Position numbers and translations under genes: made by a program. From the NCBI GenBank assembly GCA_028716065.1, contig JAQUQN010000002.1, positions 6,485 to 70,484 on the forward strand: a DNA stretch of 64,000 nucleotides, given 5' to 3'. A model generated the notes under the pieces. That model searched no databases. It saw only the letters and a list, made by a program, of their open reading frames with translations, and was not told the DNA's origin. The DNA comes from Candidatus Omnitrophota bacterium (GTDB lineage: Bacteria; Omnitrophota; Gorgyraeia; 2-01-FULL-45-10). Positions 18,958 to 56,524 of this stretch are shown here, piece after piece. The stretch's first letter is position 1; each line of letters opens with the position of its first letter.

Positions 18958-18967
18958 GGTATTAATA

Positions 18968-20603: not shown

Positions 20604-20615
20604 TTACGAATCGCG

Positions 20616-20658
20616 GTAGGCGGCGCGGATATTTTTTAACCGGGCCTGCCTATCTTTT
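20616..20658 (+). terminator. Probable glnA 3' terminator
   Basis: TAGGCGG / CCTGCCTA stem with inner CGG/CCG pairs, tail TCTTTT. Confidence 0.45.
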
Positions 20659-20668
20659 AGGCATTGAT

Positions 20669-23800: not shown

Positions 23801-25389
23801 CCAGGTATACCACGCAAGGCGTCACCCTCATATCGCCGCCTCCGCACCACGACATATATTCCATCGAGGACCTTGCGCAGCTCATATTTGACCTGAAGAA
23901 CGTCAATCCTAAAGCCCGAATAAGCGTTAAGCTTGTATCGGAGATAGGGGTGGGCACGGTCGCCGCGGGTGTCGCCAAAGGTCATGCCGACATGATACTG
24001 ATCTCGGGCGGAGACGGGGGAACCGGCGCATCGCCTCTCAGTTCCATAAAACACGCGGGCCTCCCGTGGGAACTCGGCCTTTCGGAGACACATCAAACTC
24101 TGGTCCTGAACGACCTGCGCAGCAGGGTCAGGCTGCAGACGGACGGACAGATGCGCACGGGCCGCGACATCGCCATCGCCGCCTTGCTGGGAGCGGAAGA
24201 GTTTGGCTTCTCTACCGCGGTACTGATAGTCCTCGGATGTGTGATGTTGAGGCATTGCCACCTGAATAATTGTTCCGTGGGAGTCGCCACGCAGGACGCC
24301 ATCCTGCAGAATAGGTTCAGGGGAAGGCCTGAATATATAATCAACTACTTCTATTTCGTCGCGCAAGAACTGAGAGAGATAATGGCCGGGCTGGGTATTC
24401 GCCGCGTTGACGACATGATCGGCAGGACGGATCTATTGCTGGTCGATAAGACGGCCTTGACCTGGAAGACCAAAGGGCTGGATTTTTCAAGAATGCTGTA
24501 CAAGGCCGGAACGAAGAGGCCGGACACCAGATACCATGTTATGCCTCAGAAGCCTGCAATGCACGGGGAATTGGATTCAGAACTCATCAAACTCTCAAAA
24601 GATGCGATAGGCAATAGAGCACCTGTAAAACTCTCCATGGGCATAAAAAATAGCAATAGGACTGCCGGCGCCATGTTGAGCGGAGAGGTGTGCAGGGTAC
24701 ATGGGGAAGGCGGCCTGCCTGATGATACCGTATACTGCAAATTCAAGGGTGTAGCCGGCCAGAGCTTCGGCGCCTTTCTCTCCAAAGGAATAACATTTGA
24801 ACTCGAAGGCATGGCGAACGATTATGTGGGCAAGGGTATCTCCGGCGGGAAGATCATAATATATCCGGACAGGAGAGCGGGTTATGACGCCAGCAGGGGC
24901 ATCATCATCGGAAATACGACATTTTACGGCGCCATAAGCGGTGAGGCATATATAAGGGGGACCGCGGGAGAAAGGTTTTGCATAAGGAATTCGGGGCTGA
25001 ATGCCGTCGTAGAAGGCACCGGTGACCATGGATGCGAATACATGACCGGAGGAAGGGTTGTCATTCTGGGAAAAACTGGAAGGAACTTTGCCGCTGGGAT
25101 GTCTGGCGGCATCGCGTATGTTTACGATCCGAAGAGAGATTTTAAAGATAGGTGCAACATGGAGATGGTAACCCTGGAAAGCATAAATTCCGACGATGAG
25201 ATGACGATCGGCGAGCTGCTATCCAACCACCACAGGTTCACCGGCAGTACATTGGCCAGAGAGATACTGGACGACCTTAAATCCAGGTTAAAGAGCTTTA
25301 TCAAGGTCATGCCGATAGAATACAAGCGTATCCTGGAAAGCAAAGAGCTAGAGGAAGATTTGAATCTCGTAGAGGTGTCAGATGGGTGA
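20851..25389 (+). CDS. gltB: Glutamate synthase large subunit
   Basis: About 1510 aa. N-terminal Ntn Cys (HDSCGVGF), FMN domain and C-terminal GXGXG domain. Start set at the ATG of the ATGA overlap. Confidence 0.95.
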
Positions 25390-30030: not shown

Positions 30031-32800
<2,770 letters not shown>

Positions 32801-35619: not shown

Positions 35620-37294
<1,675 letters not shown>

Positions 37295-37295: not shown

Positions 37296-38375
37296 ATGAA
37301 AGCGATACTGGCCCTGGAAGACGGAAAAATATTTAAAGGAGATTCCTTCGGAGCGGAAGGCGAAACCTTCGGGGAGGTCGTCTTCAACACGAGCATGGCG
37401 GGCTATCAGGAGATAGTGACCGACCCCTCCTACAAGGGGCAGATCGTGACGATGACCTATCCGTTGATAGGCAATTATGGTGTCAACGCAGAGGACGCGG
37501 AATCATGCAGGCCATTTGCCGAGGCTCTCGTCGTAAAAGAATATTCCAAGGTTGCCTCAAGCTGGCGCAGCCAGAAGTCCCTCGGCGATTATCTCAAGGA
37601 GAATAAAATATTGGGCATAGAAGATATCGATACCCGACAGCTGACCCTTCATATACGAGAGGCCGGGGCGATGAAAGCAGTTCTATCCACCGTCGATTTC
37701 GATGAAGCAAATCTCGTGAGGAAGGCCAAGAAATCTCCCGGACTTATAGGCATAGACCTGGTAAAAGATGTCTCTTCACAAAAGAGACGCGTATGGAACA
37801 CGGAAGGGCGCTACAAGGTAGTTGTTTTGGACTGCGGAGTGAAATTTAATATCTTAAGAGAACTTGCCAAGCGTGACTGCGCCGTTACGGTACTACCGGC
37901 AAGCGCATCCGCTGAAGAGATATTATCACTCAAGCCAAATGGCATATTGTTATCGAATGGTCCGGGGGACCCGGCCGCTGTTCCATATGTCGTCGAGACG
38001 GCCCGGGATCTACTGGGAAAGGTTCCTATATTCGGAATATGCCTGGGCCATCAGATGCTGGGGCAGGCCTTCGGCGGCAAGACATATAAACTCAAATTCG
38101 GCCACCATGGCGGCAACCATCCCGTAAAGGACCTAAAGACAGACAAGGTGGCAATAACGGTTCAAAATCACGGTTTTTGCGTAGACATAGATACCTTGAA
38201 CAAGAAAGAGATCGAGATAACACACATAAATCTGAACGACAAAACACTGGAAGGAATGAGGCATAAGAGACTGCCTGTATTCTCCGTGCAGTTTCATCCG
38301 GAATCTTCGCCGGGCCCCCATGACTCCGAATACCTTTTTTGCAATTTTGTGGAGATGATGAAACGCCATGCCTAA
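37296..38375 (+). CDS. carA: Carbamoyl-phosphate synthase small (glutaminase) subunit, catalytically intact copy
   Basis: Canonical triad context GICLGHQ and [15 protein letters not shown]. Starts 1 nt after the pyrG stop. Confidence 0.9.
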
Positions 38376-40035
38376 GCGAAAGGACATAAAAAAGATACTG
38401 ATCATAGGCTCGGGGCCTATCGTGATAGGCCAGGCATGCGAGTTTGACTATTCCGGATCTCAGGCGTGCAAGGTCCTGAGGCAGGAAGGTTACAAAGTGA
38501 TCCTTGTAAATTCAAATCCCGCCACTATAATGACCGATCCGGAGATGGCGGATAAAACCTACATAGAACCCATAGATGTAGATACCGTCGGAAGGATAAT
38601 CGCAAAGGAGAGACCCGACGCGTTGCTTCCCACGCTAGGGGGACAGACCGCATTGAACACTGCTGTAGGACTTGCCGAGGCGGGTATATTAAAAAAATAT
38701 AAGGTGGAGACGATAGGCGCCAATATAAAAGCGATCAAGAAGGCTGAGGACAGGCGGCTCTTTAAGGAGGCGATGCAGAAGATAGGGCTTGATCTGCCGG
38801 AGAGCGGCAAGGCTTATAACATGAAAGAGGCTTTTGAAACTGCGGAGAAGATAGGGTTTCCCGTCATCATAAGACCGAGCTTTACCCTGGGAGGAAAAGG
38901 CGGGAGCGTCGCATATAATAAAGAGGATTTTAAAGAGCTTGCGAAAATAGGCATTGAATCCAGCATGATAAGCGAGATATTGATAGAGGAATCTGTTATG
39001 GGATGGAAGGAGTTCGAGCTCGAAGTCATGAGGGACGTCAAGGACAATGTAGTAATAATATGTTCTATCGAAAATCTGGATCCTATGGGGATCCACACAG
39101 GGGACAGCATAACGGTCGCGCCCGCCCAGACACTGACCGATAGAGAATACCAGAAGATGAGAGACGCCTCGATAGCATGTATAAGAGAGATAGGGGTTGA
39201 AACCGGCGGATCCAATATACAGTTTGCCGTGAACCCCAAAACGGGCAGGATGGTAGTTATAGAGATGAACCCCAGGGTATCGAGAAGTTCTGCCCTGGCC
39301 TCCAAGGCGACCGGATTTCCGATAGCCAAGATAGCTGCCAAACTGGCGGTCGGTTATACGCTGGATGAAATACCGAACGATATCACGAAGGAGACGCCTG
39401 CATGTTTTGAGCCGGCCATCGACTATTGCGTCGTCAAGATACCGAGGTTTACATTCGAAAAGTTCGCCACGGCAGACCCAACATTGACAATATCGATGAA
39501 ATCCGTGGGAGAGGCGATGGCAATTGGCAGGACTTTCAAGGAAGCGCTACAGAAAGGCCTGCGTTCACTAGAGATTAAAAAATCAGGCCTCGACACCATC
39601 ATCTTTAAGGGGCACGTCGACGATATAAACGCCGATGAGGAGACGAGGGATGAAATCTGTCAAAAGGTTATAATACCAAACTCGGAAAGGATATTTTATA
39701 TCGGCGACGCCCTGAGGGCCGGTATCGATGCCGAAAAGATATGCGAGCTTTCCGGAATAGACCCTTGGTTCATACATAATATCAAAGAAATTATAATCGC
39801 GGAAAAAGAGATCATCTCGGGAAAGGATAAGATGACCGCTGAACTGTTGGCCAAGGCAAAACGGCTGGGTTTCAGTGATATTCAGATCGCCTGCCTGACA
39901 GGCACCAAGGAGAAAGCTATACGCGCCTTAAGAAAAAAATTCGGGATAAATCCTTCCTTCAAGCTCGTCGATACCTGCGCCGCTGAGTTCAGGGCCCACA
40001 CCCCATACTATTACTCAACGTACGATCATCAATAA
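38368..40035 (+). CDS. carB: Half-size CarB: N-terminal (carboxyphosphate) ATP-grasp plus oligomerisation domain only, 555 aa
   Basis: Collinear with residues 1-555 of the full-length carB at 46593. ATP-grasp motifs are intact. Ends ...[18 protein letters not shown], exactly at the half boundary. 8-nt overlap with carA. Confidence 0.85.
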
Positions 40036-40097: not shown

Positions 40098-40562
40098 GTG
40101 CCTAAAAAAATACCCATAATAGAACAGCGCCATTTCATAAGGCACCCTTTGTGCATTCCGCTGGAATATAGAATTCTCGAGAAGACTTCCGACAAAGACT
40201 CACAGCCGCAACGTTCCATGACGATAAATATAAGCCAGGGCGGATTGATGTTTTCTGCGCGCAGGGCCGTGCCGCAGAACCGTATAATCAGCGTCAAGAT
40301 GCCTTTTCAGGATAAGGTATTCAACGTGAGGGCAAAGGTCGTCCATTGCAATAAAAATTCCGATACCAAACTATACAACATCGGTGTATCTTTCTACCGG
40401 TTCACCGACGCCTTCAAAGCGAAATTGATAGAGCAGCTCTATCTGATATCGGAATATCGGGATCTGCGCAGCATACAACTCGGCAGGGACGTCTCGCTGG
40501 AACAGGCCTCTGAGGAATGGATCAAAAGATATTCGGCACGCTTCAAGCGGTTGTATTGGTAA
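40098..40562 (+). CDS. PilZ domain protein
   Basis: GTG start. QRHFIRH and NISQGG motifs. Confidence 0.8.
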   Translation: MPKKIPIIEQRHFIRHPLCIPLEYRILEKTSDKDSQPQRSMTINISQGGLMFSARRAVPQNRIISVKMPFQDKVFNVRAKVVHCNKNSDTKLYNIGVSFYRFTDAFKAKLIEQLYLISEYRDLRSIQLGRDVSLEQASEEWIKRYSARFKRLYW

Positions 40563-40615
40563 AGCATGAAAGCGAGAAAGCCGTTCATAATAGCCCTTAT
40601 CGTAGCAACCGGAAT

Positions 40616-42142
40616 ATGACAAAAAAAACTGGTTTCGATAACGAAAAATATCTGAACGAGCAGACCTCGGCCATAGTAAACAGGGTAAAAAAGTTCGACA
40701 ACAAACTGTATCTAGAGTTCGGGGGCAAGCTCTGTTTCGACTATCACGCCGCGCGCGTCCTTCCTGGATATGACTCCAACGTCAAAATACGGCTCCTGCA
40801 GCTATTGAAAGACAAGATTGATATAGTACTCTCCATATATTCGGGCGATATAGAGAAGGGCAGGGTAAGGGGCGATTTCGGTATCACCTACGACGCCGCC
40901 ACTCTCAAACTGATAGACGACCTGCGAAAATGGGGTCTCGATATCCTCGCCGTAGTCATCACCCGTTTCGCTAATCAGTCCTCGGCCATCATCTTCAAAA
41001 ACAAACTGGAACGTAGGGGTGTCAAGGTATACCTCCATTACCCCATAGACGGGTATCCTACCAATATAGACCGCGTGGTCAGCGACGATGGTTTCGGAAA
41101 GAATGAGTACATCCAGACTAAAAAACCGATAGTGGTCGTTACGGGCCCCGGGCCGAACAGCGGCAAGCTGGCAACGTGCCTTTCCCAGCTCTATCAAGAA
41201 CATAAACGCGGAATAAACGCCGGGTACGCCAAATTCGAAACATTCCCTATCTGGAACATCCCGCTCAAACACCCTGTCAACGTCGCTTATGAAGCGGCTA
41301 CCGCCGATATAATGGACTTCAATCTCGTAGATCCTTTCCATCTAAACGTATATAATGAAACGGCGATAAACTATAATCGCGACGTGGAGAGCTTTCCCAT
41401 ACTCAAGCTGATCCTCAGCAAGATATTCACTAAAAACGCGAACCTGCCGATGTATAACTCTCCTACCGATATGGGGGTAAACAAGGCCGGCTTTGGAATC
41501 ATAGATGATAGCGTGGTCCAGGAGGCCGCGAAACAGGAACTGATAAGAAGGTATTTCAGATATAACACAGAATACGTACTCGGCATAGAGAGAAAAGAGA
41601 CGGTGGATAAGGTAGCTATCCTGATGGAAGAGATGGGCGTCAAGATAACCGACCGCCTCGTAGTGGAGATCGCCAGGAAGACCGCCGAAGAAGCGGAGTC
41701 GAAAGGCAAGGGGCATGCCGGTATACATTGCGGTGCGGCCGTTCAACTCGGGGACGGGCAGCTCATAACGGGTAAAAATTCAAACCTGATGCACGCCGCC
41801 TCGAGCGTCGTCTTGAACGCCATCAAGATGCTCGCGAACATACCGGATGAGATATTACTATTATCACCGCATATAATAAACCAGATCTCGAAATTAAAAG
41901 AGGGCATTCTGAAGGCCGACCCCGAAAGCCTGGACCTCGAAGAGACGCTTATAGCGCTCTCCATAAGCGCTACCACAAACCATACCGCCGAACTTGCCAT
42001 GCAGAAGCTGGTCGCATTAAGAGGATGTGAAATGCACATGACCCACATTCCTACCCCCGGTGACGAAGTCGGTTTAAAAAGGCTGGGCGTAAACCTCACC
42101 ACGGACGGCAAATTCTCATCCCGCAACCTATTCGTAGCCTGA
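40616..42142 (+). CDS. DUF1846 (UPF0371) family protein
   Basis: Start at ATG 40616 (MTKKTGFDNEKYLNEQ), about 508 aa. Family assignment is from memory and was not searched. Confidence 0.7.
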   Translation: MTKKTGFDNEKYLNEQTSAIVNRVKKFDNKLYLEFGGKLCFDYHAARVLPGYDSNVKIRLLQLLKDKIDIVLSIYSGDIEKGRVRGDFGITYDAATLKLIDDLRKWGLDILAVVITRFANQSSAIIFKNKLERRGVKVYLHYPIDGYPTNIDRVVSDDGFGKNEYIQTKKPIVVVTGPGPNSGKLATCLSQLYQEHKRGINAGYAKFETFPIWNIPLKHPVNVAYEAATADIMDFNLVDPFHLNVYNETAINYNRDVESFPILKLILSKIFTKNANLPMYNSPTDMGVNKAGFGIIDDSVVQEAAKQELIRRYFRYNTEYVLGIERKETVDKVAILMEEMGVKITDRLVVEIARKTAEEAESKGKGHAGIHCGAAVQLGDGQLITGKNSNLMHAASSVVLNAIKMLANIPDEILLLSPHIINQISKLKEGILKADPESLDLEETLIALSISATTNHTAELAMQKLVALRGCEMHMTHIPTPGDEVGLKRLGVNLTTDGKFSSRNLFVA

Positions 42143-42989: not shown

Positions 42990-44480
42990 TCATGCAGAAC
43001 CGTTCTTAAAAGATGGGAGGGAGACCGTAAAAGTAGATCCTTTCGAAACCTCGCTCTTCACATCGATCCTTCCATTATGGGTTTCGGCTATGGACCTGGC
43101 TATGCTTAAGCCGAGGCCAAATCCCGCATCGTCTGCGCGCGACTTATCAACGCAATAGAACCTGTCGAAGATGTGGCCGATCTCTTCTCTTGAAATACCA
43201 ACGCCGGTATCGCTTATCTTGACCGTGACAAGATCGCCGTTTGCAACAGCGACGATCTCTATCCTGCCGCCTGGTTCCGTATATTTAACGGCATTATCAA
43301 TGATATTAAGGAAGAGGGTCTTTAACTGATTCTCGTCTCCGTACAAGAAAAGGGGCTTATCATCCTGGCCCAATGAAATCCGTATATTTTTCAATTCGGA
43401 TAGCGTCTTTACATTCTTCATGACGTCATTGAGTAATTGGCCAAGCTCTAACCGCTTCTTTTCGGGCATCATCTGACTCGAATCGAACTTCGCCAGAAAG
43501 AGGAGGTTTTCAGCCAATTTTATTATTTTATTCACTTCCTGAAGCGCGCTCTTCAATATCGATTCATATTCACCCTGAGAACGCATCTTCTTGAGCACGA
43601 CCTCAAATTCACCTTTCAGTATGGTCAGAGGAGTCTTGAGATCATGCGACAAGTTTTCAAAAAGCTGCCTCTGAGCATTAAAAGAGCTCTCGAGGCGTCC
43701 AAGCATGCTGTTGAATGTTTCGGCAAGCTTCTGTATTTCGTCCCTGGTGTCGGGGATGGAGAGTTTCAGCTTCATGTTCTCAGCTGTAATTTGGTGTATG
43801 GTATCTATCATGCTGTCAACGGGGTGGAGCGCCACCTTCGCCAGAAAAGCGCCCATAACTCCCGTGAGCAGAACGGTCGCGGGCAGTATCAATAAGAGGG
43901 CCGCCCTAAGGCTATTGAGGGCAACATGTATGGAGGTCAGTGGACTGGCGACCTGGACTATATAGGCGACCTTCTCCTTTTCAAATATAGGCGTGGTAAA
44001 TACCCTGTACGATTCCCTGTCGGATTGATTGATATCGCCCAACGTATCGAAGCGGGTCTTCCCCTGTAGCACCGTGATAAAATTCTTTCTCGAAATGGTC
44101 GGCATATCTTTGGCTTCGATTGAAGAGGCTATCGTGGCGCCGTCGGTATCGAATACCTGGACAAATATATCCATGAGCCTCGGATCGCTCGTCTCCTTCT
44201 TGACCCAGCGTTGGGCTATCTTCGCGAAATTCACGTTGCGTCTCTTCCGGACCTCATCGGGCTTTACGCCGCTGTCTATGACTTCCAGCTTCGATGCCTC
44301 CCAGTAAGTGTCTATGGCCTGCGCTATGCCTGCCGCCTTTGACTTGAGCAGGGTATCCATGTTGCCATAGAGGCTATTATCGACATTGTGGTAAAGAGCT
44401 ATGCTGATGGCGGCCAGCGTAACCGCCAGTATGGCCATGTACAATATCGTGATCTTGAATCTTATTGATTTTAAAAACAT
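42990..44480 (-). CDS. Sensor histidine kinase (2 TM, HAMP, HisKA, HATPase)
   Basis: H-box FENLSHDLKTPLT, N-box NIIDNAVKYT, G-box GFGLGLSIA. Confidence 0.9.
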   Translation of the reverse strand: MFLKSIRFKITILYMAILAVTLAAISIALYHNVDNSLYGNMDTLLKSKAAGIAQAIDTYWEASKLEVIDSGVKPDEVRKRRNVNFAKIAQRWVKKETSDPRLMDIFVQVFDTDGATIASSIEAKDMPTISRKNFITVLQGKTRFDTLGDINQSDRESYRVFTTPIFEKEKVAYIVQVASPLTSIHVALNSLRAALLLILPATVLLTGVMGAFLAKVALHPVDSMIDTIHQITAENMKLKLSIPDTRDEIQKLAETFNSMLGRLESSFNAQRQLFENLSHDLKTPLTILKGEFEVVLKKMRSQGEYESILKSALQEVNKIIKLAENLLFLAKFDSSQMMPEKKRLELGQLLNDVMKNVKTLSELKNIRISLGQDDKPLFLYGDENQLKTLFLNIIDNAVKYTEPGGRIEIVAVANGDLVTVKISDTGVGISREEIGHIFDRFYCVDKSRADDAGFGLGLSIARSIAETHNGRIDVKSEVSKGSTFTVSLPSFKNGSA

Positions 44481-44486
44481 TGGGGC

Positions 44487-45155
44487 TCACTCTTTCAATA
44501 TGTAGCCTCTGCCGCGTATCGTATGTATCAGCTTCTTGCTAAAACCGGAATCGACCTTTTTCCTCAGATAATTTATATAGACGTCTATGACATTCGTGAA
44601 GGTGTCGAAATCTATATCCCATACGTGCTCCGATATCATCGTCCTGCTTACGACCGTGCCGGCATTCCGCATCAGGTACTCCAGAAGACTGTACTCTTTG
44701 GCGGTCAGTGATATCTCCTTGCCTGATCGCGCCACTTTATGAGTCAGAAGATCCAGCTCAAGATCCCCCACCTGCAGTTTCGTAACGGTGCCGGACTCCT
44801 TTTTCCTGAGTATGACCCTGATCCTGGCGAGCAGTTCCTCGAAAGCAAACGGCTTTGTCAGATAATCGTCGGCTCCAGTATCAAGGCCCACAACCTTGTC
44901 CTTGACCGTATCCTTTGCCGTAAGCATGATAATGGGGGAGGAGACACCTTCCTTCTTCAACTGCCCGCAGAGGCTGAGGCCGTCTATCTTGGGAAGCATG
45001 AGGTCCAGGAGTATGAGGTCGTAGTTGTTGGTCTTGGCCAGAAAATGGCCCTGTTCACCGTCATGGGCCAAATCCACGGCGTAGCCTTCTTCCTTAAGGC
45101 CCCTTTTAATAAAATCCGCTATTTTTCTCTCATCTTCAATGATAAGGATCCGCAT
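44487..45155 (-). CDS. OmpR-family response regulator
   Basis: REC domain (DLILLDLMLP, acceptor Asp) plus a winged-helix C-terminus (TIRGRGY). Confidence 0.95.
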   Translation of the reverse strand: MRILIIEDERKIADFIKRGLKEEGYAVDLAHDGEQGHFLAKTNNYDLILLDLMLPKIDGLSLCGQLKKEGVSSPIIMLTAKDTVKDKVVGLDTGADDYLTKPFAFEELLARIRVILRKKESGTVTKLQVGDLELDLLTHKVARSGKEISLTAKEYSLLEYLMRNAGTVVSRTMISEHVWDIDFDTFTNVIDVYINYLRKKVDSGFSKKLIHTIRGRGYILKE

Positions 45156-45466: not shown

Positions 45467-46606
45467 ATGAAAGCAACGTTAGTTCTGGAAAATGGCAGGT
45501 CCTTTGAGGGTGTTTCAATAGGCGCGCCGGCCGAGAGGATAGGCGAGGTCATTTTAAATACGGCGGTAGTGGGCTATCAGGAGATGATGACCGACCCGGC
45601 AAATGCCGGTAAGTTATTGGCCCTGACTTATCCTTTGATAGGTAATTACGGGGTGGCGAACAAATTTTACGAGTCTAGAAAATGCTGGGTTAACGGATTG
45701 ATCATGAAAGAATGCAGCAGGATATATTCGAACTGGCAGGCAGAGGGTTCCTTCCAGGACTTTCTGAATCATGAAGGGGTCGTCGCCTTGAGCGAAGTCG
45801 ACACGAGAACTCTGGCCGTTGAATTACGTAATCACGGAGAGATGATGGGTATCATAACGAGCGAGCCGCTCGATGGGCAGAAGGCGATAAAAAAACTGCG
45901 AGAGCATAAAAAGAAGGGCAAAAATAATTTTATAAGCAATATCTCCGTGAAGGCCATAACCGAAGTAGAGACCGGCTCCAGGGGGCCAAGGGTCGCGGTG
46001 CTTGACCTTGGCATGCTGAAGAGCTTCACCGCCCAATTGAAGAGCCTTAAATGCGGCGTGGCCCTGTTGCCCTACAACATAACGCCCAAAGAGATCCTGG
46101 CCATAAAACCGGACGGCCTCGTAATATCCAGCGGGCCGGAGGACGATGCTGCCATACCCGAGATCATCAAGACCGTGAACGGCGTGCTTGGAAAAATTCC
46201 TATATTGGGCATATCTTTAGGACATGAGCTCATCGCGCTTGCGTTGGGCGGCAAAGTGAAAAAGATGAAGCTGGGGCACCGAGGAGTAAACTATCCGGTA
46301 AAGCCGGCGGATTCGTTTAAGGGCGAGATAACGACGCAAAATCATAGCTACATCGTTGACGAGGACTCAATAAGAAGAAAGAAGGCCGTAGAAATAACCC
46401 TGAGAAATATAAACGACGGCTCCATAGAGGAGATGGAAAGCAAGAGCTTGAAGTTCATCTCGACACAATACTATCCGGTCAGCCCCGGTTTCGGGGAGGT
46501 CAACAATGTCTTCTTGCGATTTTTGAAATTGCTAAACCCTTCCGGGAGAGCGGGGATAAAAACGAAGAAAAATAAACAACTTGAGGTGAGCTATGCCAAA
46601 ACGTAA
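45467..46606 (+). CDS. carA: CarA-like subunit with the glutaminase catalytic triad lost (pseudo-glutaminase)
   Basis: Full-length CarA fold, but GICLGHQ is GISLGHE (Ser250, codon TCT 46214-46216) and QFHPE is QYYPV (Tyr336, Val338). 14-nt overlap with full-length carB. Confidence 0.85.
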
Positions 46607-49600
46607 GGATATACATAAAATACTGATGATAGGCTCCGGCCCAATAGTCATCGGCCAGGCATGCGAATTTGACTATTCCGGCTCCCAGGCATGCAAGGCG
46701 TTAAAAGAAGAGGGGTATCGCACCATACTCGTGAATTCGAACCCCGCCACCATCATGACCGATCCCAACATGGCCGACGTCACATATATAGAGCCCCTCA
46801 CGGTGGAGGCGGTTACCGAGATAATAAAAAAGGAAAGGCCTGACGCCATCCTTCCCACTCTTGGCGGCCAGACCGGACTGAACCTGGCATTCTTCCTGAT
46901 GAAGGAAGGGATATTGAAAAAATACGGAGTCGAATCGATAGGCGCAAATGTCGATGCCATCTCGCGGGCCGAAGACAGGGAGCTGTTCAAAAAGGCCATG
47001 CTCGAGATAGGCATAGATGTCCCAAAAAGCGGTATCGCCACCACTATAGAAGAGGGCATAAAGATAGGGCTCGGTATAGGGTTTCCGCTCATCTTAAGGC
47101 CGGCCTACACGCTCGGGGGCACGGGCGGATCCATAGCGTATAATAAAGAAGAGCTGGAGCTCTTCCTGGCCAAGGGCATAGAATTGAGCCCCGTGGGCCA
47201 GATCCTGGTGGAACAATCTGTCCTGGGCTGGAAAGAGATAGAATTTGAAGTTATGCGGGATTGCGTCGATAACGTCATCATGATAACATCGATGGAGAAT
47301 GTCGACCCCATGGGCGTCCATACAGGCGACAGCATCGTCGTCGCTCCATCGCAGACCCTGACCAAAGAGGAATATGCTCAGTTCGTAAACCTGTCCAAGA
47401 AGATAATAAGGAAGATAGGCATAACCGGAGGGGGCGCCAATATCCAGTTTGCGCAAAACCCCGCCAATGGCCATATAGTTATAATCGAGGTGAACCCGCG
47501 CCTCTCCAGAAGCTCTGCCCTGGCATCGAAGGCCACGGGATTTCCTATCGCGCGCGTCGCCACCAAGCTGGCTGTTGGGCTGACGCTTCCGGAGGTCCTC
47601 AATCAGATAACGGGCGGGACGAAGGCCTTTTTCGAACCGACGGTTGATTATTGCGTCTTCAAGATATGCAGGTTCACGTTTGAGAAATTTCCGCAGACTA
47701 ACAGGACGCTGAATACCTCCATGAAGGCGGTGGGAGAGGCGATGTCCATAGGGAGAAACTTCAAAGAGGCCCTCCAGAAAGGCATAAGGTCGACCGAGAT
47801 CCGAAGGTTCGGGCTGGGTTGTGACGGCCGGGACAAGATAACGGATGAAAACATCGAATCTCCCGGAGCGGATACCATACAGACCATAAAAGAGAAGATA
47901 CGCCTTCCCAACGACGACAGGCTATTCTATATAAGATACGCCCTTAAGCTGGGAATGACGGCCGAGGAGATATATGAATTGTCCAGGATCGACATGTGGT
48001 TTATCGACAACTTAAAGCAGATCGTGGAATTAGAAGAAGGCCTCAAGAACTACCGCAAGACCAGCCAGAAGGGTTCTATAAAGATCCCTCCCGCGGTACT
48101 TCTGGAGGCGAAGAAATACGGATTTTCAGATGTACAGATCGCGTTCCTTACAAAATCCAGCGAAAAAGAGGTGAGAGAATTGAGAAAGAGGCATGATATA
48201 AAACCTACTTATAAATTGGTAGATACATGCGCGGGGGAGATCAAGGCCAAACAGCCCTATTATTACTCTACCTATGAGACCGAAGACGAAAGCCGCCCGA
48301 CGAAGAACAAGAAGGTCCTGATCCTGGGTGGAGGCCCCAACAGGATCGGCCAAGGCATAGAGTTCGATTACTGCTGCTGCCACGCATCATACGCCCTGAA
48401 AGAAGAGGGGATAGAGAGCATCATGGTCAATTGTAACCCTGAAACAGTCTCCACGGATTATGATACATCCGATAAGTTATATTTTGAGCCGCTTACCGTG
48501 GAAGATGTGATGAATATAGTGGACAACGAAAAACCGATAGGGGCAATAGTACAGTTCGGAGGCCAGACGCCCCTGAATATTTCGGGCGAATTACACAAGA
48601 TGGGCCTCAATATATTAGGCACCAGCCCGGACTCAATCGATATCGCTGAGGACAGGAAACGCTTCCAGCAGATGCTGAAGAAACTTAAACTGGTCCAACC
48701 CGATAACGGAACGGCGACCTCTTTCGAGGAGGCAAAGAAGATCGCGCATACGATAGGGTATCCCGTGGTAGTAAGGCCTTCTTACGTGCTGGGTGGCAGG
48801 GCGATGGAGATAGTTTATGATGAAAAGGCCCTGTGCGATTATATGGAAAGGGCCACGGAGGCTTCGCCCGAAAAACCCATATTGATCGATAAATTCCTCG
48901 AAGACGCCATAGAGGTTGATGTCGACGCCATAGCCGACGGTAAAAGATGCGTGATAGGAGGATTCCTTGAGCATATAGAGGAGGCGGGGATCCATTCGGG
49001 CGACAGCGCGATGGTGCTCCCTCCGCATACCCTGGGCAAGGATATCATAGACACCATAAAGAAAAATACCTATGCGATGGCAAAGGAGCTGAAGGTCAAG
49101 GGCCTCATGAACGTGCAATACGCCGTAAAAAACAACATAGTCTATGTGCTGGAAGTAAACCCGAGGGCCAGCAGGACCGTTCCGTTCGTCTCTAAGGCGA
49201 TAGGCATACCCCTGGCAAAACTCGCCACGAAGATAATGCTGGGCAAGACATTGGATGAACTCGGTTTTACAAAAGAGAAAAATATAAATTTTGTCGTGGT
49301 CAAAGAATCTGTATTCCCCTTCATAAGGTTCCCTGGCGCGGACGCCATATTGGGCCCTGAAATGAAATCTACCGGTGAGGTAATGGGCATGGACTCTACA
49401 TTCGGCATGGCTTACGCTAAAAGCCAGTTAGCGGCCGGCCAGAAACTGCCTAAAAAAGGCAATGTCTTTATAAGCGTAAAAAACCAGGACAAGAGAAACA
49501 TGGTATTCGTGGCAAAGAAGCTTTCCGATCTTGGCTTTAAGATCCTGGCCACTATAGGGACCGCTGAGGCTCTGAGGAGCAATGACATAGAGGTCCGGGT

Positions 49601-49862
49601 ATTGCCAAAGCTTCATGAAGGCCGGCCCAATATCATAGATTTTATAAAGGATAATAAAGTCCATCTAATCATAAATACCCCTGCGGGAAAGGCCACGAAA
49701 GAGGACGAGTCTAAAATAAGGGCCCATGCGATCCTTTATAATGTTCCGCTCATAACCACGGTTTCGGGCGCGCAGGCATCCGTAAACGGAATAGAAAATC
49801 TGATTAAAAAACCTGAGATGTCCGTAAGGTCTCTGCAGGATTACCACAAGAAGATAAAATAG
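46593..49862 (+). CDS. carB: Carbamoyl-phosphate synthase large subunit (full length)
   Basis: 1089 aa with both ATP-grasp halves and a C-terminal MGS-like allosteric domain. Confidence 0.95.
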
Positions 49863-49880: not shown

Positions 49881-51281
49881 ATGAAAGAGTATTGCGGAGT
49901 TGTCGGTATCTTCGGCCATAAAGACGCTGCGCGGCTGGCATACCTGGCGCTCTATGCCTTGCAGCACAGGGGAGAAGAATCCGCTGGGATAGTCAGCTTC
50001 GACAGAAAAAAAGTCTATACCCATAAAGGCATGGGCCTCGTAGGCAATGTATTCAGTGAGGAAGGATTAAAAAAATTAAAGGGGCCCATGGCAATAGGCC
50101 ATGTAAGATATTCTACGACGGGCTCGAGCACCACCAAGAATATCCAGCCATTATTGATAAATCATAAAAAAGGGTTCATTGCGGTAGCCCACAACGGAAA
50201 TCTCACGAATTCCGTTGAGCTGCAAAATGAACTCGAAGATTCCGGATCGATACTTCAGACCTCGATGGACTCCGAACTGATAATCCATCTTCTGGTCAGG
50301 GACCAGAAAAATAATTATAGGGAGAAGATGATACCCATCCTGTCGAGGCTTGAAGGGGCCTACGCATTCGTCTTCATGATTAATGACACCATCTATGCCG
50401 TAAGGGATCCATACGGTTTCAGGCCCCTTTCCATAGCGAAAGCGGAAGACGCCTACGTCGTTGCCAGCGAGACCTGCGCCTTCGACATGATACGCGCCAA
50501 ATACGTGCGTGATGTGGAGCCCGGGGAAGTCGTAATGATAAACAAGGACGGCCTGACATCGCTCGGCCACATACCCGGAAAGAGACACGCCTTCTGTATA
50601 TTTGAATATATATACTTCGCGCGCCCCGACAGCAATATCTTTACGAAAAGCGTCTATCTGACGAGGAAGAACCTGGGCAGGGCCCTTGCCAGAGAGCACC
50701 CCGTCGGAGCCGATATAGTGATGCCGATACCCGACTCGGGCACATACGCCGCCCTCGGTTATGCCGAGGAATCCAAGATACCTCTTGAGATGGCTTTCGT
50801 AAGAAACCATTACATAGGAAGGACATTCATACAGCCCAGCCAATTCATAAGAGATTTCAAGGTGCGTGTAAAGCTGAATCCCGTCAGGGATGCCTTGAAA
50901 GATAAACGAATCGTCATAATCGAGGATTCTATAGTCAGGGGCACTACCTCGAGGAGCAGGGTAAGGGCGCTCAAGGAGGCAGGGGCACGCGAGATACACA
51001 TGAGGGTCAGTTGTCCGCCGTTAATATCGCCATGTTTTTACGGGATAGACTTCCCGACCAAAAAAGAGCTCATAGCCTCCAGCCATAAGATCGAAGAGAT
51101 AAGGCAGTTCATAGGGCTGGACAGCCTTGAATATTTAAGTATTGAAGGCATGCTGAATTCCATGCTTCTTCCGAAAGAGGAATTCTGCACCGCCTGTTTT
51201 TCAGGAGATTATCCGACCAGGATATGCAAGCCACCGTCAAAAAAGGCGCTCGAAAAGAGCCGCTGCATGGGGATAAAATAA
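49881..51281 (+). CDS. purF: Amidophosphoribosyltransferase
   Basis: N-terminal [11 protein letters not shown] (Ntn Cys) and PRTase motif [12 protein letters not shown]. Confidence 0.95.
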
Positions 51282-51282
51282 G

Positions 51283-52827
51283 ATGGCTACTGAAGATATT
51301 CTAATAATCGATTTCGGTTCGCAGTATAACCAGTTAATAGCCCGTAAGGTAAGGGAGCATGATGTCTTTTGCGAGATCGTGCCTCCGGACATCTCAGCGG
51401 CATCCATCAGGAAAAAAAATGTGAAGGGTATCATCCTCTCCGGAGGTCCGGCCAGCGTCTACGCGAAGAATGCGCCGTCCTGCGATAAGGAGATATTCTC
51501 GTTGGGCATACCGGTCCTCGGCATATGCTACGGCATGCAGCTCATGACGAAGCTCCTGGGCGGAAAGGTAGAGAGGACTCGCTTTCGCGAATACGGCAGA
51601 GCCGCTCTCACAGTTACAAACCGTAGGATGTTATTCAAGCATATACCTAAAAAGAGCGTCTCCTGGATGAGCCACGGCGACAAGGTGAAACGGATGCCGC
51701 AAGGTTTTACGCGGTTGGCATTGTCCAAGAACACATCCATTGCGGCCTTCGCCGATTTTCGTAGAAGGCTGTATGGCGTCCAATTCCATCCCGAAGTGGT
51801 CCATACCGAACACGGCAAGACCATCATAAAAAATTTCGTAAAAGATATCTGCCGCTGCAGCGGCGACTGGTCGATGCGCTCTTTCGTAAAAGATACCATA
51901 TCCGAGATACGAAAGGTGGTAGGCAAAAAAGAGAAGGTGGTGCTGGGGCTTTCGGGAGGCGTAGACTCCTCGGTGACGGCACTCTTGATAAATAAGGCCA
52001 TAGGCCACCGGCTCGTATGCATATTCGTGGACAACGGCCTCTTGCGTAAGAACGAGGCCGGAAGCGTTAAGGAGATATTCCAGAAGCACTTCAAGATAAA
52101 CCTGAAGTGCGTGGACGCCTCAAAATATTTTTTAAACGAACTTCGCGGCGTCCAGGACCCGGAAAAGAAGAGAAAGATAATCGGCAGGACTTTCATAAAG
52201 GTATTCGAGGAGGAGGCACACAAGGTAGGCGGCGTAAAATTCCTGGCGCAGGGCACGCTCTATCCGGACCTTATAGAATCCCGTTCGGCATTCGGCGGGC
52301 CGAGCGCGACCATAAAGACCCACCATAACGTCGGGGGACTGCCCAAAGAGATGAAACTGAAACTCATCGAACCGCTAAAATACCTATTTAAGGACGAAGT
52401 AAGAAGGGTAGGACGGGAACTCAAAATGCCGCAAGAGGTGCTCGGACGTCATCCGTTCCCGGGTCCGGGCCTGGCCGTACGGATAATAGGGGAGGTCACT
52501 AAAGCGCGCTGTGATATCCTGCGCGAAGTGGATGACAGGTTCATAAGCGCCCTGCGGAGCAACAACCTCTACGATAAGATCTGGCAGGCGTTCGCCGTGC
52601 TCTTACCGATAAAATCCGTCGGAGTCATGGGCGACGAGAGGACATACGAAAACGTGGTCGCCATACGGGCCGTCACGAGCCTTGACGGCATGACAGCCGA
52701 TTGGGCGAAGATACCCCATGAAGTGCTCGGAAAAGTATCGAACAGGATAATCAATGAGGTCAACGGTGTCAACAGAGTCGTCTATGATATAAGCTCCAAA
52801 CCTCCCTCCACCATCGAGTGGGAATAA
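51283..52827 (+). CDS. guaA: GMP synthase (glutamine-hydrolysing)
   Basis: GICYGMQ GATase, SGGVDSS PP-loop, C-terminal ...PPSTIEWE. Confidence 0.95.
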
Positions 52828-52845
52828 TCTAAAAGGAAGCTATAG

Positions 52846-55707
52846 ATGTTTTGGCGGATCGAGATAAAGGAAAAAGAAGGTCATTTCGACGCGCTGGGCG
52901 AAAGCGCCAAAAGAGATATCAATGACCTTGACCTGAGGAGCAGGGCCAGAGAAGTAAAGACCGTCCAGGTCTACCATTTGGATGGGGAACTGCAAGAACC
53001 CGACATAAAGACGATATGCGAAGACTTGCTCATAGATCCCGTAACGCAGGAATACGACTACTCCGGCAGCGCTGAGGCCGAAAGCAGATTTAAAGTTGTC
53101 GAAGTGGCCTACAACCCTGGCGTGATGGATCCCGTTGAGGAGAGCACTAAAAAGGCGATACTCGACCTGGGCATAGCGGGCATACGTTCCGTAAGAACCG
53201 CTAAGAAATATCTGATAAAAGGGGATCTAAGCGCCGACGATATCCGCCTTCTGGCCGAGAAGGTCCTCTACAATAAACTCGTGCAGCATGTCGTCAAAGA
53301 TCCTTCGGAGGTCTCAGCAGAACCGCCCACCTACTGCTTCAAACTTATCAGCGTTGATCTTATAAAGGCAGCTGACAAAAGATTAAAAAAGATATCCAGG
53401 GACGGCCAGCTCTTCCTGGACCTGGAAGAGATGCGGACGATAAAAAAGTACTTCGTGAAGCTCGGCAGGAATCCCACCGACTGTGAACTCGAAACGATCG
53501 CGCAGACCTGGTCCGAACATTGTTATCACAAAACATTCAGAGGCCTCGTCAAGTATAACGGAAAGACGATCGACAACCTGCTCAAGAATACGGTGATGAA
53601 GGTCACCAAAAAACTAAAAAAAAAGTGGTGCGTCTCTGTCTTCGAGGATAATTCGGGCGTCATCAGGTTTGACGAGAAATTCAATATCTGTTTCAAGGTA
53701 GAGACCCACAATCATCCATCCGCGCTTGAACCATACGGCGGCGCAGGGACGGGCATAGGAGGGGTCATCCGCGATCCCTTGGGGACCGGCCTTGGCGCAA
53801 AGCCTATAATAAATACCGATGTATTCTGTTTCGGTCCGCCCGATCATTCCTATAAAAAACTTCCTAAAGGGGTACTTCATCCTAAACGCATAATGAAGGG
53901 CGTCGTCGCCGGCGTGAGGGACTACGGCAACAGGATGGGCATACCTACCTCGAACGGCGCGGTCCTGTTCGACGAGAATTTTGTGGGAAATCCACTCGTC
54001 TTCTGCGGAAACGTCGGTATCATGCCCAGGAACAAATCTTTCAAAGAGGCCCATAGCGGCGACCTGATAGTGGTGGTGGGCGGCAGGACGGGAAGGGACG
54101 GGATACACGGCGCGACCTTTTCCTCCGGAGAACTTACACACGAATCGCACGGCGTCTCGGGTTCAGCGGTACAGATCGGAAACCCTATACAGGAAAAGAA
54201 GCTTGTGGATACCATACTTCAGGCCAGGGACCTCAATCTATACAGCGCTATAACGGACTGCGGAGCCGGCGGATTATCAAGCGCCGTGGGAGAGATGGGC
54301 GCAGAGCTGGGCGCCGAGGTCGAACTGGAGAAGGTGCCTTTAAAATACAAGGGCCTAAGATATGACGAGATATGGATATCCGAAGCTCAGGAACGGATGG
54401 TCCTGGCGGTGCCGCCGGAGAAGATAGACGCGCTTCAGAACGTCTTTAAAAAAGAAAATGTGGAGGCTACCGTAATAGGAAATTTTACGAAAGACAGACG
54501 GCTCAGATTATCCTATGATGGAAACCGTGTTTGCGACATAGATATGCGGTTCTTGCATAAAGGCGCTCCAAGGACGGTGCGAAAGGCCTCATGGAAGAGG
54601 CCCCGGTTCTCCGAACCCAGGATAATCCCTAAAAAAGACCTTACGGGGGAACTCTTGGGACTCCTATCCAACCCTAACATCGCGTCAAAAGAATGGATAA
54701 TCAGGCAATATGACCATGAAGTGCAGGGCGGAAGCGTGATAAAACCTCTGCAGGGCATAAACGGCGGCGGGCCGGGAGACGCTTGCGTAACGCGCCCCGT
54801 TCTCAATTCAAAAAAAGGCATCGTCTTAGGCTGCGGAATAAATCCGGATTACGGAAAGATAGACCCTTACTGGATGGCGGCAAGCGTGATAGACGAGGCC
54901 CTACGACAGATCACATCCGTAGGAGGAAAACTGGATAGGTGCGCCATATTGGACAATTTCTGCTGGGGCAATACGAATAAACCGGATAGGCTTGGCGGAC
55001 TGGTGCGGGCAGCGGAGGGGTGTCATGACATAGCCTTGGCCTACGGTGTTCCTTTCATCTCAGGAAAAGACAGCCTTAACAATGAATATTCAGCCGGAAA
55101 TAAATCCATATCTATACCTCCGACGCTGCTAATATCGGCGATCGCAATAATGGATGACGTGGCCAGGGCGGTCACGATGGACGCGAAAAAATCCGGGAAC
55201 GCGATATATATCATAGGAAAGACCCATGACGAGCTCGGAGGCTCGCAGTATTACAAGATGAAAGGTTATGTAGGCAACAACGTTCCTAAAGTAGATACCC
55301 CAACGGGAAAAAGTATCATGGAGTCCATGAATAAGGCCATGGATGCCGGATGCGTCCGGTCATGCCATGATTGCTCGGAGGGTGGAATGGCGGTAGCCCT
55401 GGCTGAAATGGCTTTTGCCGGAGGACTCGGCATGGAGATAGACCTCTCTATTCTTCCCGACTCGGCTCATGAGGACATCAAAAGAGACGATACGTTATTA
55501 TTCTCCGAAAGCAATTCAAGATTTATTGTAGAGGTCGAGAATGAAGCTAAATTCATAAAGATCATGAAGGGAAAACCGGTATTCAAACTTGGCCGCATAA
55601 ATAAAGGTAAAATTTTCAAAATATACGGCATGAGCGGAGATATTTTGATAAAGAGCGATGTGGACAGGTTAAAAGCGGCATGGCAAAGGCCGTTCAAAAA
55701 CATGTAA
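52846..55707 (+). CDS. purL: Phosphoribosylformylglycinamidine synthase PurL with fused N-terminal PurS-like domain(s)
   Basis: 953 aa. The first ~170 aa are PurS-like, followed by the PurL core (ETHNHPSALEPYGGAGTGIGGVIRD). Confidence 0.9.
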   Translation: MFWRIEIKEKEGHFDALGESAKRDINDLDLRSRAREVKTVQVYHLDGELQEPDIKTICEDLLIDPVTQEYDYSGSAEAESRFKVVEVAYNPGVMDPVEESTKKAILDLGIAGIRSVRTAKKYLIKGDLSADDIRLLAEKVLYNKLVQHVVKDPSEVSAEPPTYCFKLISVDLIKAADKRLKKISRDGQLFLDLEEMRTIKKYFVKLGRNPTDCELETIAQTWSEHCYHKTFRGLVKYNGKTIDNLLKNTVMKVTKKLKKKWCVSVFEDNSGVIRFDEKFNICFKVETHNHPSALEPYGGAGTGIGGVIRDPLGTGLGAKPIINTDVFCFGPPDHSYKKLPKGVLHPKRIMKGVVAGVRDYGNRMGIPTSNGAVLFDENFVGNPLVFCGNVGIMPRNKSFKEAHSGDLIVVVGGRTGRDGIHGATFSSGELTHESHGVSGSAVQIGNPIQEKKLVDTILQARDLNLYSAITDCGAGGLSSAVGEMGAELGAEVELEKVPLKYKGLRYDEIWISEAQERMVLAVPPEKIDALQNVFKKENVEATVIGNFTKDRRLRLSYDGNRVCDIDMRFLHKGAPRTVRKASWKRPRFSEPRIIPKKDLTGELLGLLSNPNIASKEWIIRQYDHEVQGGSVIKPLQGINGGGPGDACVTRPVLNSKKGIVLGCGINPDYGKIDPYWMAASVIDEALRQITSVGGKLDRCAILDNFCWGNTNKPDRLGGLVRAAEGCHDIALAYGVPFISGKDSLNNEYSAGNKSISIPPTLLISAIAIMDDVARAVTMDAKKSGNAIYIIGKTHDELGGSQYYKMKGYVGNNVPKVDTPTGKSIMESMNKAMDAGCVRSCHDCSEGGMAVALAEMAFAGGLGMEIDLSILPDSAHEDIKRDDTLLFSESNSRFIVEVENEAKFIKIMKGKPVFKLGRINKGKIFKIYGMSGDILIKSDVDRLKAAWQRPFKNM

Positions 55708-55708
55708 G

Positions 55709-56524
55709 ATGGGTAAAATAAAAGTCATAATAATACGGACTGCGGGTACCAATTGCGACGAGGAAACGGCATACGCATTTCAGCTGGCGGGGGCCGACGC
55801 GGCACTGGTCCATATAAACGAGGTTACGAGGGGAGAGCGGGATCTTAATGGCTACCATATTATGGCCATTCCGGGAGGATTCACATACGGCGACGACATA
55901 GCAAGCGGCAAGATACTGGCCAACGAATTCAAGTTTGAGTTAAAACACCAGATGCGTAAATTCGTGAAAGACGGCAGGCTCATAATAGGCATATGCAACG
56001 GCTTTCAGGTGCTTGTCAAATCAGGGTTCTTGCCTAATTTAAACGGCTCTTTTGAATCTATCGAGGCTACATTGACAATAAATGATTCTGCAAAGTTCGA
56101 AGATAGATGGGTATATTTAAAAAAAGGGGCAAGGGGCAAGGGACAAGGGGCAAGTAAAGACAGGTGCGTGTGGACAAAGGGGATAGGAGATATAATATAT
56201 CTGCCGGTAGCTCACGGCGAGGGAAAGTTCATGCCGGGAAACAGAGACATCATGAAAAGGCTTAAAAACGAAGGGATGATAGCCTTGGAGTATGTGGACG
56301 AAAACGGCCGAAAGAAAGGATACCCTCACAATCCAAACGGCTCAATAGATAATATCGCCGGTATATGCGATAATACCGGAAGGATATTTGGCCTGATGCC
56401 CCATCCCGAAAGACACATAACATGCTTTCAGCATCCCCGATGGACAAGAAAGAACGCGAAGAAAGAGGGAGACGGCCTGGCAATATTCAGGAATGGTGTG
56501 GCTTTCGCTAAAAAAAATTTGTAA
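55709..56524 (+). CDS. purQ: Phosphoribosylformylglycinamidine synthase glutaminase subunit
   Basis: GICNGFQ nucleophile and HGEG / HPER motifs. Contains a Gly/Lys-rich insertion, KGARGKGQGASKD. Confidence 0.9.
   Translation: MGKIKVIIIRTAGTNCDEETAYAFQLAGADAALVHINEVTRGERDLNGYHIMAIPGGFTYGDDIASGKILANEFKFELKHQMRKFVKDGRLIIGICNGFQVLVKSGFLPNLNGSFESIEATLTINDSAKFEDRWVYLKKGARGKGQGASKDRCVWTKGIGDIIYLPVAHGEGKFMPGNRDIMKRLKNEGMIALEYVDENGRKKGYPHNPNGSIDNIAGICDNTGRIFGLMPHPERHITCFQHPRWTRKNAKKEGDGLAIFRNGVAFAKKNL

Follow-up and report, generated by a model that had tools for sequence, protein, structure and literature searches.

Carbamoyl-phosphate synthetase (CPS) is a textbook example of a glutamine amidotransferase in which substrates are channelled, and the glutaminase triad of its small subunit, CarA, consists in Escherichia coli numbering of the nucleophile Cys269, the general base His353 and Glu355. 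In this study we describe CarA2*, a CarA-type small subunit without this triad, encoded in a 64,000-nucleotide stretch of DNA (hereafter the window; contig JAQUQN010000002.1 of assembly GCA_028716065.1) from the metagenome-assembled genome of a Candidatus Omnitrophota bacterium. The carA2* gene (plus strand, 45467-46606; 379 residues) overlaps by 14 nt the carB2 gene (plus strand, 46593-49862), which encodes its cognate partner, a full-length CPS large subunit of 1089 residues; the initial annotation of this region, made from the sequence alone, had already pointed to a degenerate carA overlapping a full-length carB. The protein has a 100% identical counterpart in NCBI, encoded on a contig of 72.6 kb. 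CarA2* is a complete two-domain CarA (PF00988, 146 bits; PF00117, 112 bits), and databases call it 'glutamine-hydrolyzing' because its TIGR01368 score (357.7) still passes the curated cut-off of 307.35. When compared by HMMER with the sequences of the PDB, it matched E. coli CarA with 187 bits, versus 362 bits for CarA1, the canonical CarA encoded upstream in the window, and its best match, with both domains aligned, was the engineered E. coli C269S mutant (1c30_B). The fold predicted with 25 close homologues resembles E. coli CarA and the N-terminal moiety of human CPS1 (TM 0.70); this low-confidence model (mean pLDDT 64.8, below 50 in the N-domain) is good for the overall fold only and not for pocket or tunnel geometry.

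The HMMER alignment placed GISLGHE of CarA2* opposite GICLGHQ of E. coli CarA, and QYYP-VSPG opposite QGHPEASPG. The position of the nucleophile is occupied by Ser250 (TCT, 46214-46216, plus strand) and that of the general base by Tyr336 (TAT, 46472-46474), which opens a Tyr336-Pro337 pair (46472-46477, plus strand) after which the Glu355 codon is missing. HMMER and three MAFFT alignments concurred on the Cys and His columns. At the third position, HMMER and one MAFFT alignment gave a one-residue gap, with Val338 (GTC, 46478-46480, plus strand) aligned to Ala356, and another MAFFT run put Val338 in the Glu355 column; Glu is absent under either alignment. Of the three substitutions initially proposed, the Cys-to-Ser and His-to-Tyr changes were therefore upheld by the codons, HMMER and MAFFT, whereas the Glu-to-Val change is better described as a deletion of the Glu. 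With Ser250, Tyr336 and a deleted Glu, CarA2* lacks every member of the CarA triad, and no Cys/His/Glu triad was found elsewhere in register in any of these alignments. Two further observations of the initial annotation were correct: HHGGNHP is degraded to HRGVNYP in CarA2*, and the upstream copy (37296-38375) is canonical, with GICLGHQ and a second motif of 12 residues.

CarA2* and its 119 closest homologues were assembled into a family set (n = 120), and 74 canonical CarAs served as the comparison set. The homologues, retrieved from NCBI, JGI, ENA and Logan assemblies and mostly labelled Omnitrophota, are 58-67% identical to CarA2*. His353 and Glu355 are absent in 119 of the 119 and Cys269 in 118, so that the triad loss is shared across relatives from independent assemblies. 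Over the whole family the Cys269 position is occupied by Ser (90), Ala (21), Gly (4), Val (2), Thr (1), Gln (1) or Cys (1), and the His353 position by Tyr (88), Asn (17), Asp (6), Cys (5), Ser (2) or Ile (2), never by His; the Glu355 column is a gap in all 120 members. The variability of the Cys and His positions indicates that the catalytic constraint has been lost. Ser250 was also considered as a replacement nucleophile, and this was ruled out because Ala, Gly, Val or Gln stands at its position in 28 of 120 members and no His is available. A scan of genome collections with a generic CarA motif yielded at least four family members among the matches listed, and a metagenome scan with a family-specific DNA motif (QYYPxSPGFxE) yielded 80 loci, 79 of them encoding a CarA2*-type protein. 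Counting the NCBI, JGI, ENA and Logan assemblies, the triad changes recur in about 200 independent sequences.

The comparison of seven carA2* orthologues gave proportions of synonymous differences (pS) of 0.72-0.94, synonymous sites being saturated, and of nonsynonymous differences (pN) of 0.17-0.35; as judged by pN, the dead glutamine amidotransferase (GATase) domain is constrained equally to the CarB-binding N-domain. The family retains 34 of 44 canonically conserved positions in the N-domain and 35 of 63 in the GATase domain, including N311, H312, P358 and G359, of which N311, P358 and G359 belong to the tunnel or interface. Relative to the 74 canonical CarAs, 25 positions are switched, among them the triad, S47, G243, Q273, G313, P360 and D362, the last two adjoining the retained tunnel residues P358 and G359. 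With an intact open reading frame (ORF) and a pN well under pS, carA2* does not behave as a pseudogene. The explanation that the substitutions are assembly errors, or that the gene is a decaying pseudogene, has in its favour only the unusual residues and the faster evolution of the protein relative to CarB2 (52-67% versus 73-97% identity). It has next to no chance of being right: it is refuted by the family-wide substitutions and by the strong purifying selection, and the intact ORF, the same changes in all those independent sequences and the invariance of several replacements speak against it as well. These data demonstrate that the loss of the triad in carA2* is lineage-wide and that the gene is under purifying selection.

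The former glutamine pocket bears changes of its own. Ser47, Gly243, Gln273 and Gly313, which we take to be the glutamine contacts in the E. coli structures, are invariant in the canonical CarAs and are replaced in the family by Ala or Thr, Glu, Glu and Ser, respectively. In CarA2*, the pocket carries Glu225 (E. coli Gly243), Asp227 (Pro245) and Glu254 (Gln273), encoded within 46139-46228 on the plus strand. Gly243 is replaced by Glu in 120 of 120 family members, Pro245 by Asp in 119 and Gln273 by Glu in 105, and all three canonical residues are present in 74 of 74 canonical CarAs; aromatic residues replace His295 (Tyr, 119/120) and Pro360 (Phe, 116/120). As several of the replacements are themselves invariant, the pocket has been remodelled and not merely eroded. 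In the Val274-Asn275-Tyr276 stretch (46286-46294, plus strand), Tyr276 stands for His295 and Val274 occupies the tunnel-lining position of Gly293. This position is Val, Leu or Ile in 101 of 120 pseudo-CarAs versus Gly, Ala or Ser in 70 of 74 canonical CarAs. One explanation of these changes is that the pocket has been neofunctionalised and binds something different, for instance a cationic effector or NH4+ itself, which would be captured there and passed into the distal tunnel that has been retained, in which case CarA2* would be an active sensor or loader and not a passive scaffold. The new invariant or near-invariant acidic residues at former substrate contacts (G243E, P245D, Q273E), the aromatic H295Y and P360F, the retention of N311, H312, P358 and G359, and a pN of the dead domain as low as that of the N-domain all fit such a role, whereas, by analogy with CPS1, a bulky residue in place of Gly293 would rather cut the pocket off from the tunnel. 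We regard neofunctionalisation as unlikely; it is compatible with the ammonia-dependent explanation developed below and does not exclude it.

We then considered the large subunit. A CarB2-type gene lies directly after the pseudo-carA in 65 of the 68 metagenome loci with downstream sequence and in all fetched genome loci, and the CarB2-type partners of the metagenome loci and orthologues are 73-97% identical to the CarB2 of the window. In two loci, L161 (8355-10649) and L148, there is no carB within 0.8-1.2 kb after the pseudo-carA, and the downstream DNA is without recognisable gene. CarB2 can be aligned with E. coli CarB over its entire length (1271 bits) and includes the MGS-like allosteric domain, and all the ATP-site residues checked in both of its halves are intact. 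Almost without exception, the pseudo-carA is thus coupled in translation to the gene of a full-length, strongly conserved CarB with intact catalytic residues. Neighbour-joining trees group the CarB2 proteins in a clade separate from the canonical CarBs of Omnitrophota and Planctomycetota. An unbiased scan of the 1089 CarB columns was carried out for those that are invariant in 10 CarB2s but hold a different residue, conserved to 85% or more, in 54 other CarBs. Only nine columns were specific to the partners of pseudo-CarAs. Two of them are Thr232 (ACA, 47286-47288, plus strand), where 54 of 54 canonical CarBs have Cys and 10 of 10 CarB2s Thr, and Val265 (GTA, 47385-47387, plus strand), where 52 of 54 canonical CarBs have Arg and 10 of 10 CarB2s Val; the others are V304L, A324T, D333P, P360C, L402T, A534G and A651S. 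Arg265 is presumably part of the tunnel wall, and Kim and Raushel reportedly removed betaR265 together with alphaP360 and alphaH361 in their 'perforation' mutant of 2004. Cys232 forms, with Ala251 and Ala314, the triangular gate midway in the E. coli ammonia tunnel (PMC8674909; PMC4655335). These CarB2-specific changes at the gate and tunnel indicate that the predicted ammonia path of the large subunit has been altered together with the small subunit.

Taken together, these comparisons make it probable, with a likelihood that we put at roughly 70%, that CarA2*-CarB2 is an ammonia-dependent CPS with a conserved structural pseudo-glutaminase, convergent with the CPS I of animals, and with a co-evolved ammonia path. 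The initial annotation had proposed such an enzyme and its parallel to CPS I, and the family-wide loss of the triad, the selection and the linkage to CarB2 support the proposal comparatively. We propose that carA2* encodes a catalytically dead glutaminase subunit, retained because it would be the structural partner of the full-length CarB2. As no nitrogen could be obtained from glutamine, the complex would use free ammonia together with bicarbonate and 2 ATP to make carbamoyl phosphate. The passage that once led from the glutamine pocket, now dead, would probably be closed by the Val at the Gly293 position. With the tunnel gate of CarB2 retuned by Thr in place of Cys232 and Val in place of Arg265, external ammonia would arrive at the carboxyphosphate site along a different path, as proposed for CPS I. 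It is from sequence comparisons that we infer ammonia as the substrate and the re-routing of the tunnel, as well as the activity of the neighbouring CarA1-CarBN pair described below.

In human CPS1, Ser294 stands in place of the catalytic Cys, Gln318, which takes the place of E. coli Gly293, obstructs the ancestral tunnel ahead of the gate, and ammonia probably enters through an alternative tunnel along the interface of the two moieties (PMC4655335). E. coli CPS variants with a blocked or perforated tunnel have normal activity on external ammonia (PMC4655335). The likeness between CarA2*-CarB2 and animal CPS I (human CPS1, PDB 5DOU and 5DOT) comprises a class-I glutaminase module that is dead yet still folded and is joined to a synthetase, fully active in the case of CPS I; Ser for the nucleophile Cys, in 90 of 120 family members as at Ser294 of CPS1; and nitrogen that must come from free ammonia, as we suppose for the Omnitrophota enzyme. 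The parallel extends past the Cys-to-Ser change, since the bulkier residue at the Gly293 position (Gln318 in CPS1, Val274 in CarA2*) is shared through the Val, Leu or Ile of those 101 family members. However, CarA2* and CarB2 are separate polypeptides (379 and 1089 residues) whereas CPS I is a single fusion of about 1500 residues; CarA2* has also lost the His and the Glu, and its pocket is re-lined with invariant acidic residues; and the gate Cys, kept in CPS1 (Cys648), is Thr in CarB2. CarA2* moreover has an independent origin, within the Omnitrophota, and shares its locus with genes for a glutamine-type CPS. The animal enzyme uses no nitrogen donor but ammonia and requires N-acetylglutamate; on the side of the Omnitrophota enzyme, CarB2 has an MGS-like allosteric domain. 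Compared with E. coli CPS II (PDB 1JDB, 1C30), the subunit organisation, gene order and domain architecture are the same, but CarA2* is without the glutamine hydrolysis machinery and the tunnel positions C232 and R265 are altered in CarB2. To our knowledge, an ammonia-specific CPS with a fossil glutaminase is known from animal CPS I only, and a literature search for triad-less bacterial CarAs returned no paper.

Several observations weigh against an ammonia-dependent CPS with a purely structural small subunit. The invariant residues gained in the former pocket (Glu225, Asp227, Glu254, Phe342 and Glu344) argue for a retained ligand-binding or regulatory role over a mere scaffold, and a 'purely structural' role for CarA2* may be too simple. 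Val is found at the Gly293 position in 2 of the 74 canonical CarAs too, which makes the 'blocked tunnel' only suggestive. The adjacency of pyrJ, which encodes the ammonia-using enzyme described below, is limited to some subclades, and is seen in only 3 of the 33 metagenome loci that extend at least 2 kb upstream. Finally, the triad-bearing CarA1 is encoded 7 kb upstream of carA2*, so that carbamoyl phosphate is probably also made from glutamine in this organism, and CarA1 might in theory bind to CarB2 as well.

The carA1 gene (plus strand, 37296-38375; TIGR01368, 520 bits) encodes a canonical CarA with an intact Cys-His-Glu triad and is translationally coupled to carBN (plus strand, 38368-40035), which encodes the N-terminal half of CarB only (555 residues). 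Both belong to a block whose first gene is pyrG (plus strand, 35681-37294; NF003792, 857 bits), encoding the glutamine-hydrolysing CTP synthase. Coupled genes for a canonical CarA and an N-terminal half of CarB were observed in the window (37296-40035), in L087 (3594-6396) and in L115, L159, L014, L015 and L012. The carBN genes of the window and its orthologues in L087, L012, L014, L015 and L045 (six contigs) all stop at E. coli residue 548-550. CarBN nests among the N-halves of canonical full-length Omnitrophota CarBs, with 75-78% identity in the N-domain, and thus arose by loss of the C-half. Its ATP site is intact, and it keeps the carboxyphosphate and oligomerisation domains, precisely those through which CarB touches the small subunit (PMC6245113).

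Activity has been described for CPSs that are split or of half size, namely the CPS.A/CPS.B/GLN enzyme of Aquifex aeolicus and the 41-kDa homodimer of Methanobrevibacter smithii (PMC6022934). As in the Aquifex enzyme, CarBN stops where CPS.A and CPS.B meet (E. coli residue ~550), and its partner is a canonical, triad-bearing CarA, and the M. smithii enzyme illustrates that half-size synthetases can act as homodimers (PMC6022934). Unlike in the split systems, the oligomerisation domain is kept in CarBN and there is no separate CPS.B gene in the window, where the only CarB C-half is the one fused within CarB2; although the boundary matches in the six contigs, only L045 has a free CPS.B, and this one is frameshifted. 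Given the activity of these known enzymes, a self-sufficient glutamine-dependent (CarA1-CarBN)2 CPS is plausible. CarA1 and CarBN would most likely constitute a separate, minimal glutamine-dependent CPS, in which a CarBN homodimer would replace the two synthetase halves.

The presence of both small subunits raises the alternative that CarB2 is glutamine-dependent in vivo through CarA1, with CarA2* acting as a competing regulatory subunit for an 'off' or 'ammonia-mode' state. Both small subunits are encoded on one contig in the window and in L087, L115 and L159, four independent contigs that share the pyrG-carA1-carBN-...-pyrJ-...-carA2*-carB2 arrangement. In addition, L045 (5583-9162; Omnitrophica RIFCSPLOWO2_01_FULL_45_10) has the order pyrG-carA1-carBN, an 84-residue ORF, a free carB C-half and purF, and this C-half nests inside the CarB2 clade, a hint that parts of CarA1/CarBN may be able to work with parts of CarB2. 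However, the C-half of L045 is frameshifted in the assembly, as is guaA, and may be a decaying remnant; the locus seems to have lost the pseudo-carA and the N-half of CarB2 through a deletion. Moreover, each small-subunit gene overlaps its own large-subunit gene, and no canonical carA is found within 6.5-10 kb in 16 of the 19 pseudo-CarA loci with at least 6.5 kb of upstream sequence. Since the changes in CarB2 are also partner-specific, at tunnel positions that are conserved in the CarBs served by active CarAs, we consider an exchange of subunits improbable.

The ammonia-dependent reading of CarA2*-CarB2 is also supported by neighbouring genes, notably pyrJ and gdhA. The two CPS operons are part of a nitrogen-assimilation and amidotransferase supercluster on the plus strand (13443-56524, about 13.4-56.5 kb of the window), in agreement with the earlier description of a region devoted to ammonium handling, since amt, glnA, gltBD, gdhA, nadE, pyrG, purF, guaA and purLQ are all present. 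It comprises nadE and the genes for ammonium uptake and for the glutamine synthetase-glutamate synthase (GS-GOGAT) pathway, amt (17315-18550), glnA, gltB and gltD (together 17315-26827, plus strand). Between gltD and pyrG lie, on the plus strand, an nfnAB-like pair, gdhA for the NADP-glutamate dehydrogenase (GDH; 31208-32800, likely true start 31460) and a gene for a GAF protein. A PilZ protein (40098-40562) is encoded between the CPS operons, and the minus strand there carries the gene of a small exported protein and a divergently transcribed two-component system (histidine kinase and response regulator, 42990-45155). Downstream of carB2, the genes purF, guaA, purSL and purQ (49881-56524, plus strand) encode amidotransferases that have kept their nucleophiles, and the same purF-guaA-purSL-purQ order recurs in L002, L084, L086, L087, L115 and L163. 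Almost every glutamine amidotransferase that can be recognised in the window (nadE, gltB, pyrG, carA, purF, guaA, purLQ) is grouped in this way with amt, glnA and gdhA on one strand, in an unusually complete nitrogen-donor supercluster. An Rfam search of the window gave no regulatory RNA match, including upstream of carA2*; a scan with TGGCAC-N5-TTGC, aimed at a sigma-54 promoter upstream of carA2*, gave no more matches than expected by chance; and no tRNAs were found in the window.

Also located between the CPS operons, on the plus strand, is pyrJ (DUF1846/UPF0371; 40517-42142; PF08903 and PF20921), the likely true start of which is Met34 at 40616. Its product matches the UPF0371 protein of PDB entry 7f00 (E = 4.8e-151), which we take to be from Streptococcus pneumoniae. 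The DUF1846 protein of S. pneumoniae, Spd_0310, was renamed PyrJ and is synthetically lethal with pyrG, and the purified enzyme converts UTP into CTP with ammonia and not with glutamine (bioRxiv 10.1101/2024.09.24.614635). The pyrJ gene is adjacent to carA2* in the window and directly upstream of it in L002, L084, L086, L087, L110, L115, L126, L142, L156, L159 and L163, where gdhA often precedes it; in L081 and L088 it is found a few kb further downstream than carA2*. In L084, L086 and L157, gdhA is located directly or nearly directly upstream of pyrJ-carA2*. CarA2*-CarB2 resembles PyrJ in that an ammonia-dependent enzyme is placed beside a glutamine-dependent one for the same step of the pyrimidine pathway. 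However, PyrJ has an unrelated fold and replaces PyrG outright, whereas CarA2*-CarB2 is a degenerate paralogue of the glutamine-dependent enzyme.

In the subclade of the window, the genes thus form matched pairs in which the glutamine-dependent member is named first and the ammonia-dependent member, known or proposed, second: GS-GOGAT and GDH, PyrG and PyrJ, CarA1-CarBN and CarA2*-CarB2. An NH3 arm may accordingly be composed of gdhA, pyrJ and carA2*-carB2, and a glutamine arm of glnA-gltBD, pyrG and carA1-carBN.

Triad-less CarAs also occur beyond the Omnitrophota. About half of the 150 best representatives of clusters at 50% identity are without the triad. Isolates are among them: the CarA of Thermosyntropha lipolytica (P0146) has Gly for the Cys and Asp for the His, and that of Desulfonispora thiosulfatigenes DSM 11270 (L090, 7028-8107) has Gly for the Cys and is encoded inside a classical pyrB-pyrC-carA-carB-pyrK-pyrD-pyrF-pyrE operon. 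The occurrence of triad-less CarAs in cultured Clostridia and elsewhere suggests that the CarA glutaminase seems to have been lost repeatedly in anaerobes. Triad-less CarAs were also observed in Planctomycetota (P0127 cluster). All the named triad-less CarAs are annotated as CPS small subunit, and as 'glutamine-hydrolyzing' in the NCBI records. One locus, L001 (CAYFRM010000086.1), is labelled 'uncultured Clostridia bacterium' and encodes a pseudo-CarA and a CarB2 that are 63% and 82% identical to those of the window; this bin is probably a mislabelled or mis-binned Omnitrophota.

A broader reading joins all these elements, and we put it forward as tentative, the odds being rather against it as a whole. 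The Omnitrophota and, independently, anaerobes such as Desulfonispora, Thermosyntropha and some Planctomycetota would run a bacterial analogue of CPS I, for which a dead CarA and its CarB would have evolved a new ammonia entry together, with the pocket sealed and acidified and the gate Cys232 changed to Thr. In the subclade of the window, this enzyme would be one arm of a deliberate dual nitrogen-donor wiring for the synthesis of nucleotides, with GDH, PyrJ and CarA2*-CarB2 on NH3 and GS-GOGAT, PyrG and CarA1 with a homodimeric half-CarB on glutamine. No half-size CPS of bacteria would have been seen with a glutaminase before this minimal CPS.

If the ammonia-dependent reading is correct, CarA2*-CarB2 would constitute a natural convergent experiment on the decommissioning and re-routing of an ammonia tunnel, in which positions 293 of the small subunit and 232 and 265 of the large subunit would be the residues to probe. 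Many annotations as 'glutamine-hydrolyzing carbamoyl-phosphate synthase small subunit' would then be wrong, and these labels would affect the metabolic reconstructions of Omnitrophota and other anaerobes. Considered with the recently described PyrJ, it would point to selection, in anaerobic niches rich in ammonium, for nucleotide biosynthesis that avoids spending ATP on making glutamine. The pairing of CarA with a half CarB, as a candidate for a minimal CPS that depends on glutamine, would offer a way to study how the internal duplication evolved.

Two further gene arrangements were observed in the collected loci. In L030 (7077-16365; Omnitrophota UBA10183), a canonical carA is followed by two tandem full-length carBs and then by pyrJ; the second of these carBs is very divergent and 54% identical to CarB2. 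In L081 (14649-16055), L088 (14525-15973) and L089 (14393-15874), a divergent PurF-like gene lies directly after the pseudo-carA/carB2 pair. The encoded proteins score 207-223 bits with TIGR01134, under the cut-off of 350, and start with MSGIFGV, the N-terminal nucleophile Cys being replaced by Ser; the operon may thus encode, besides the pseudo-CarA, another amidotransferase-like protein that lacks its glutaminase nucleophile.

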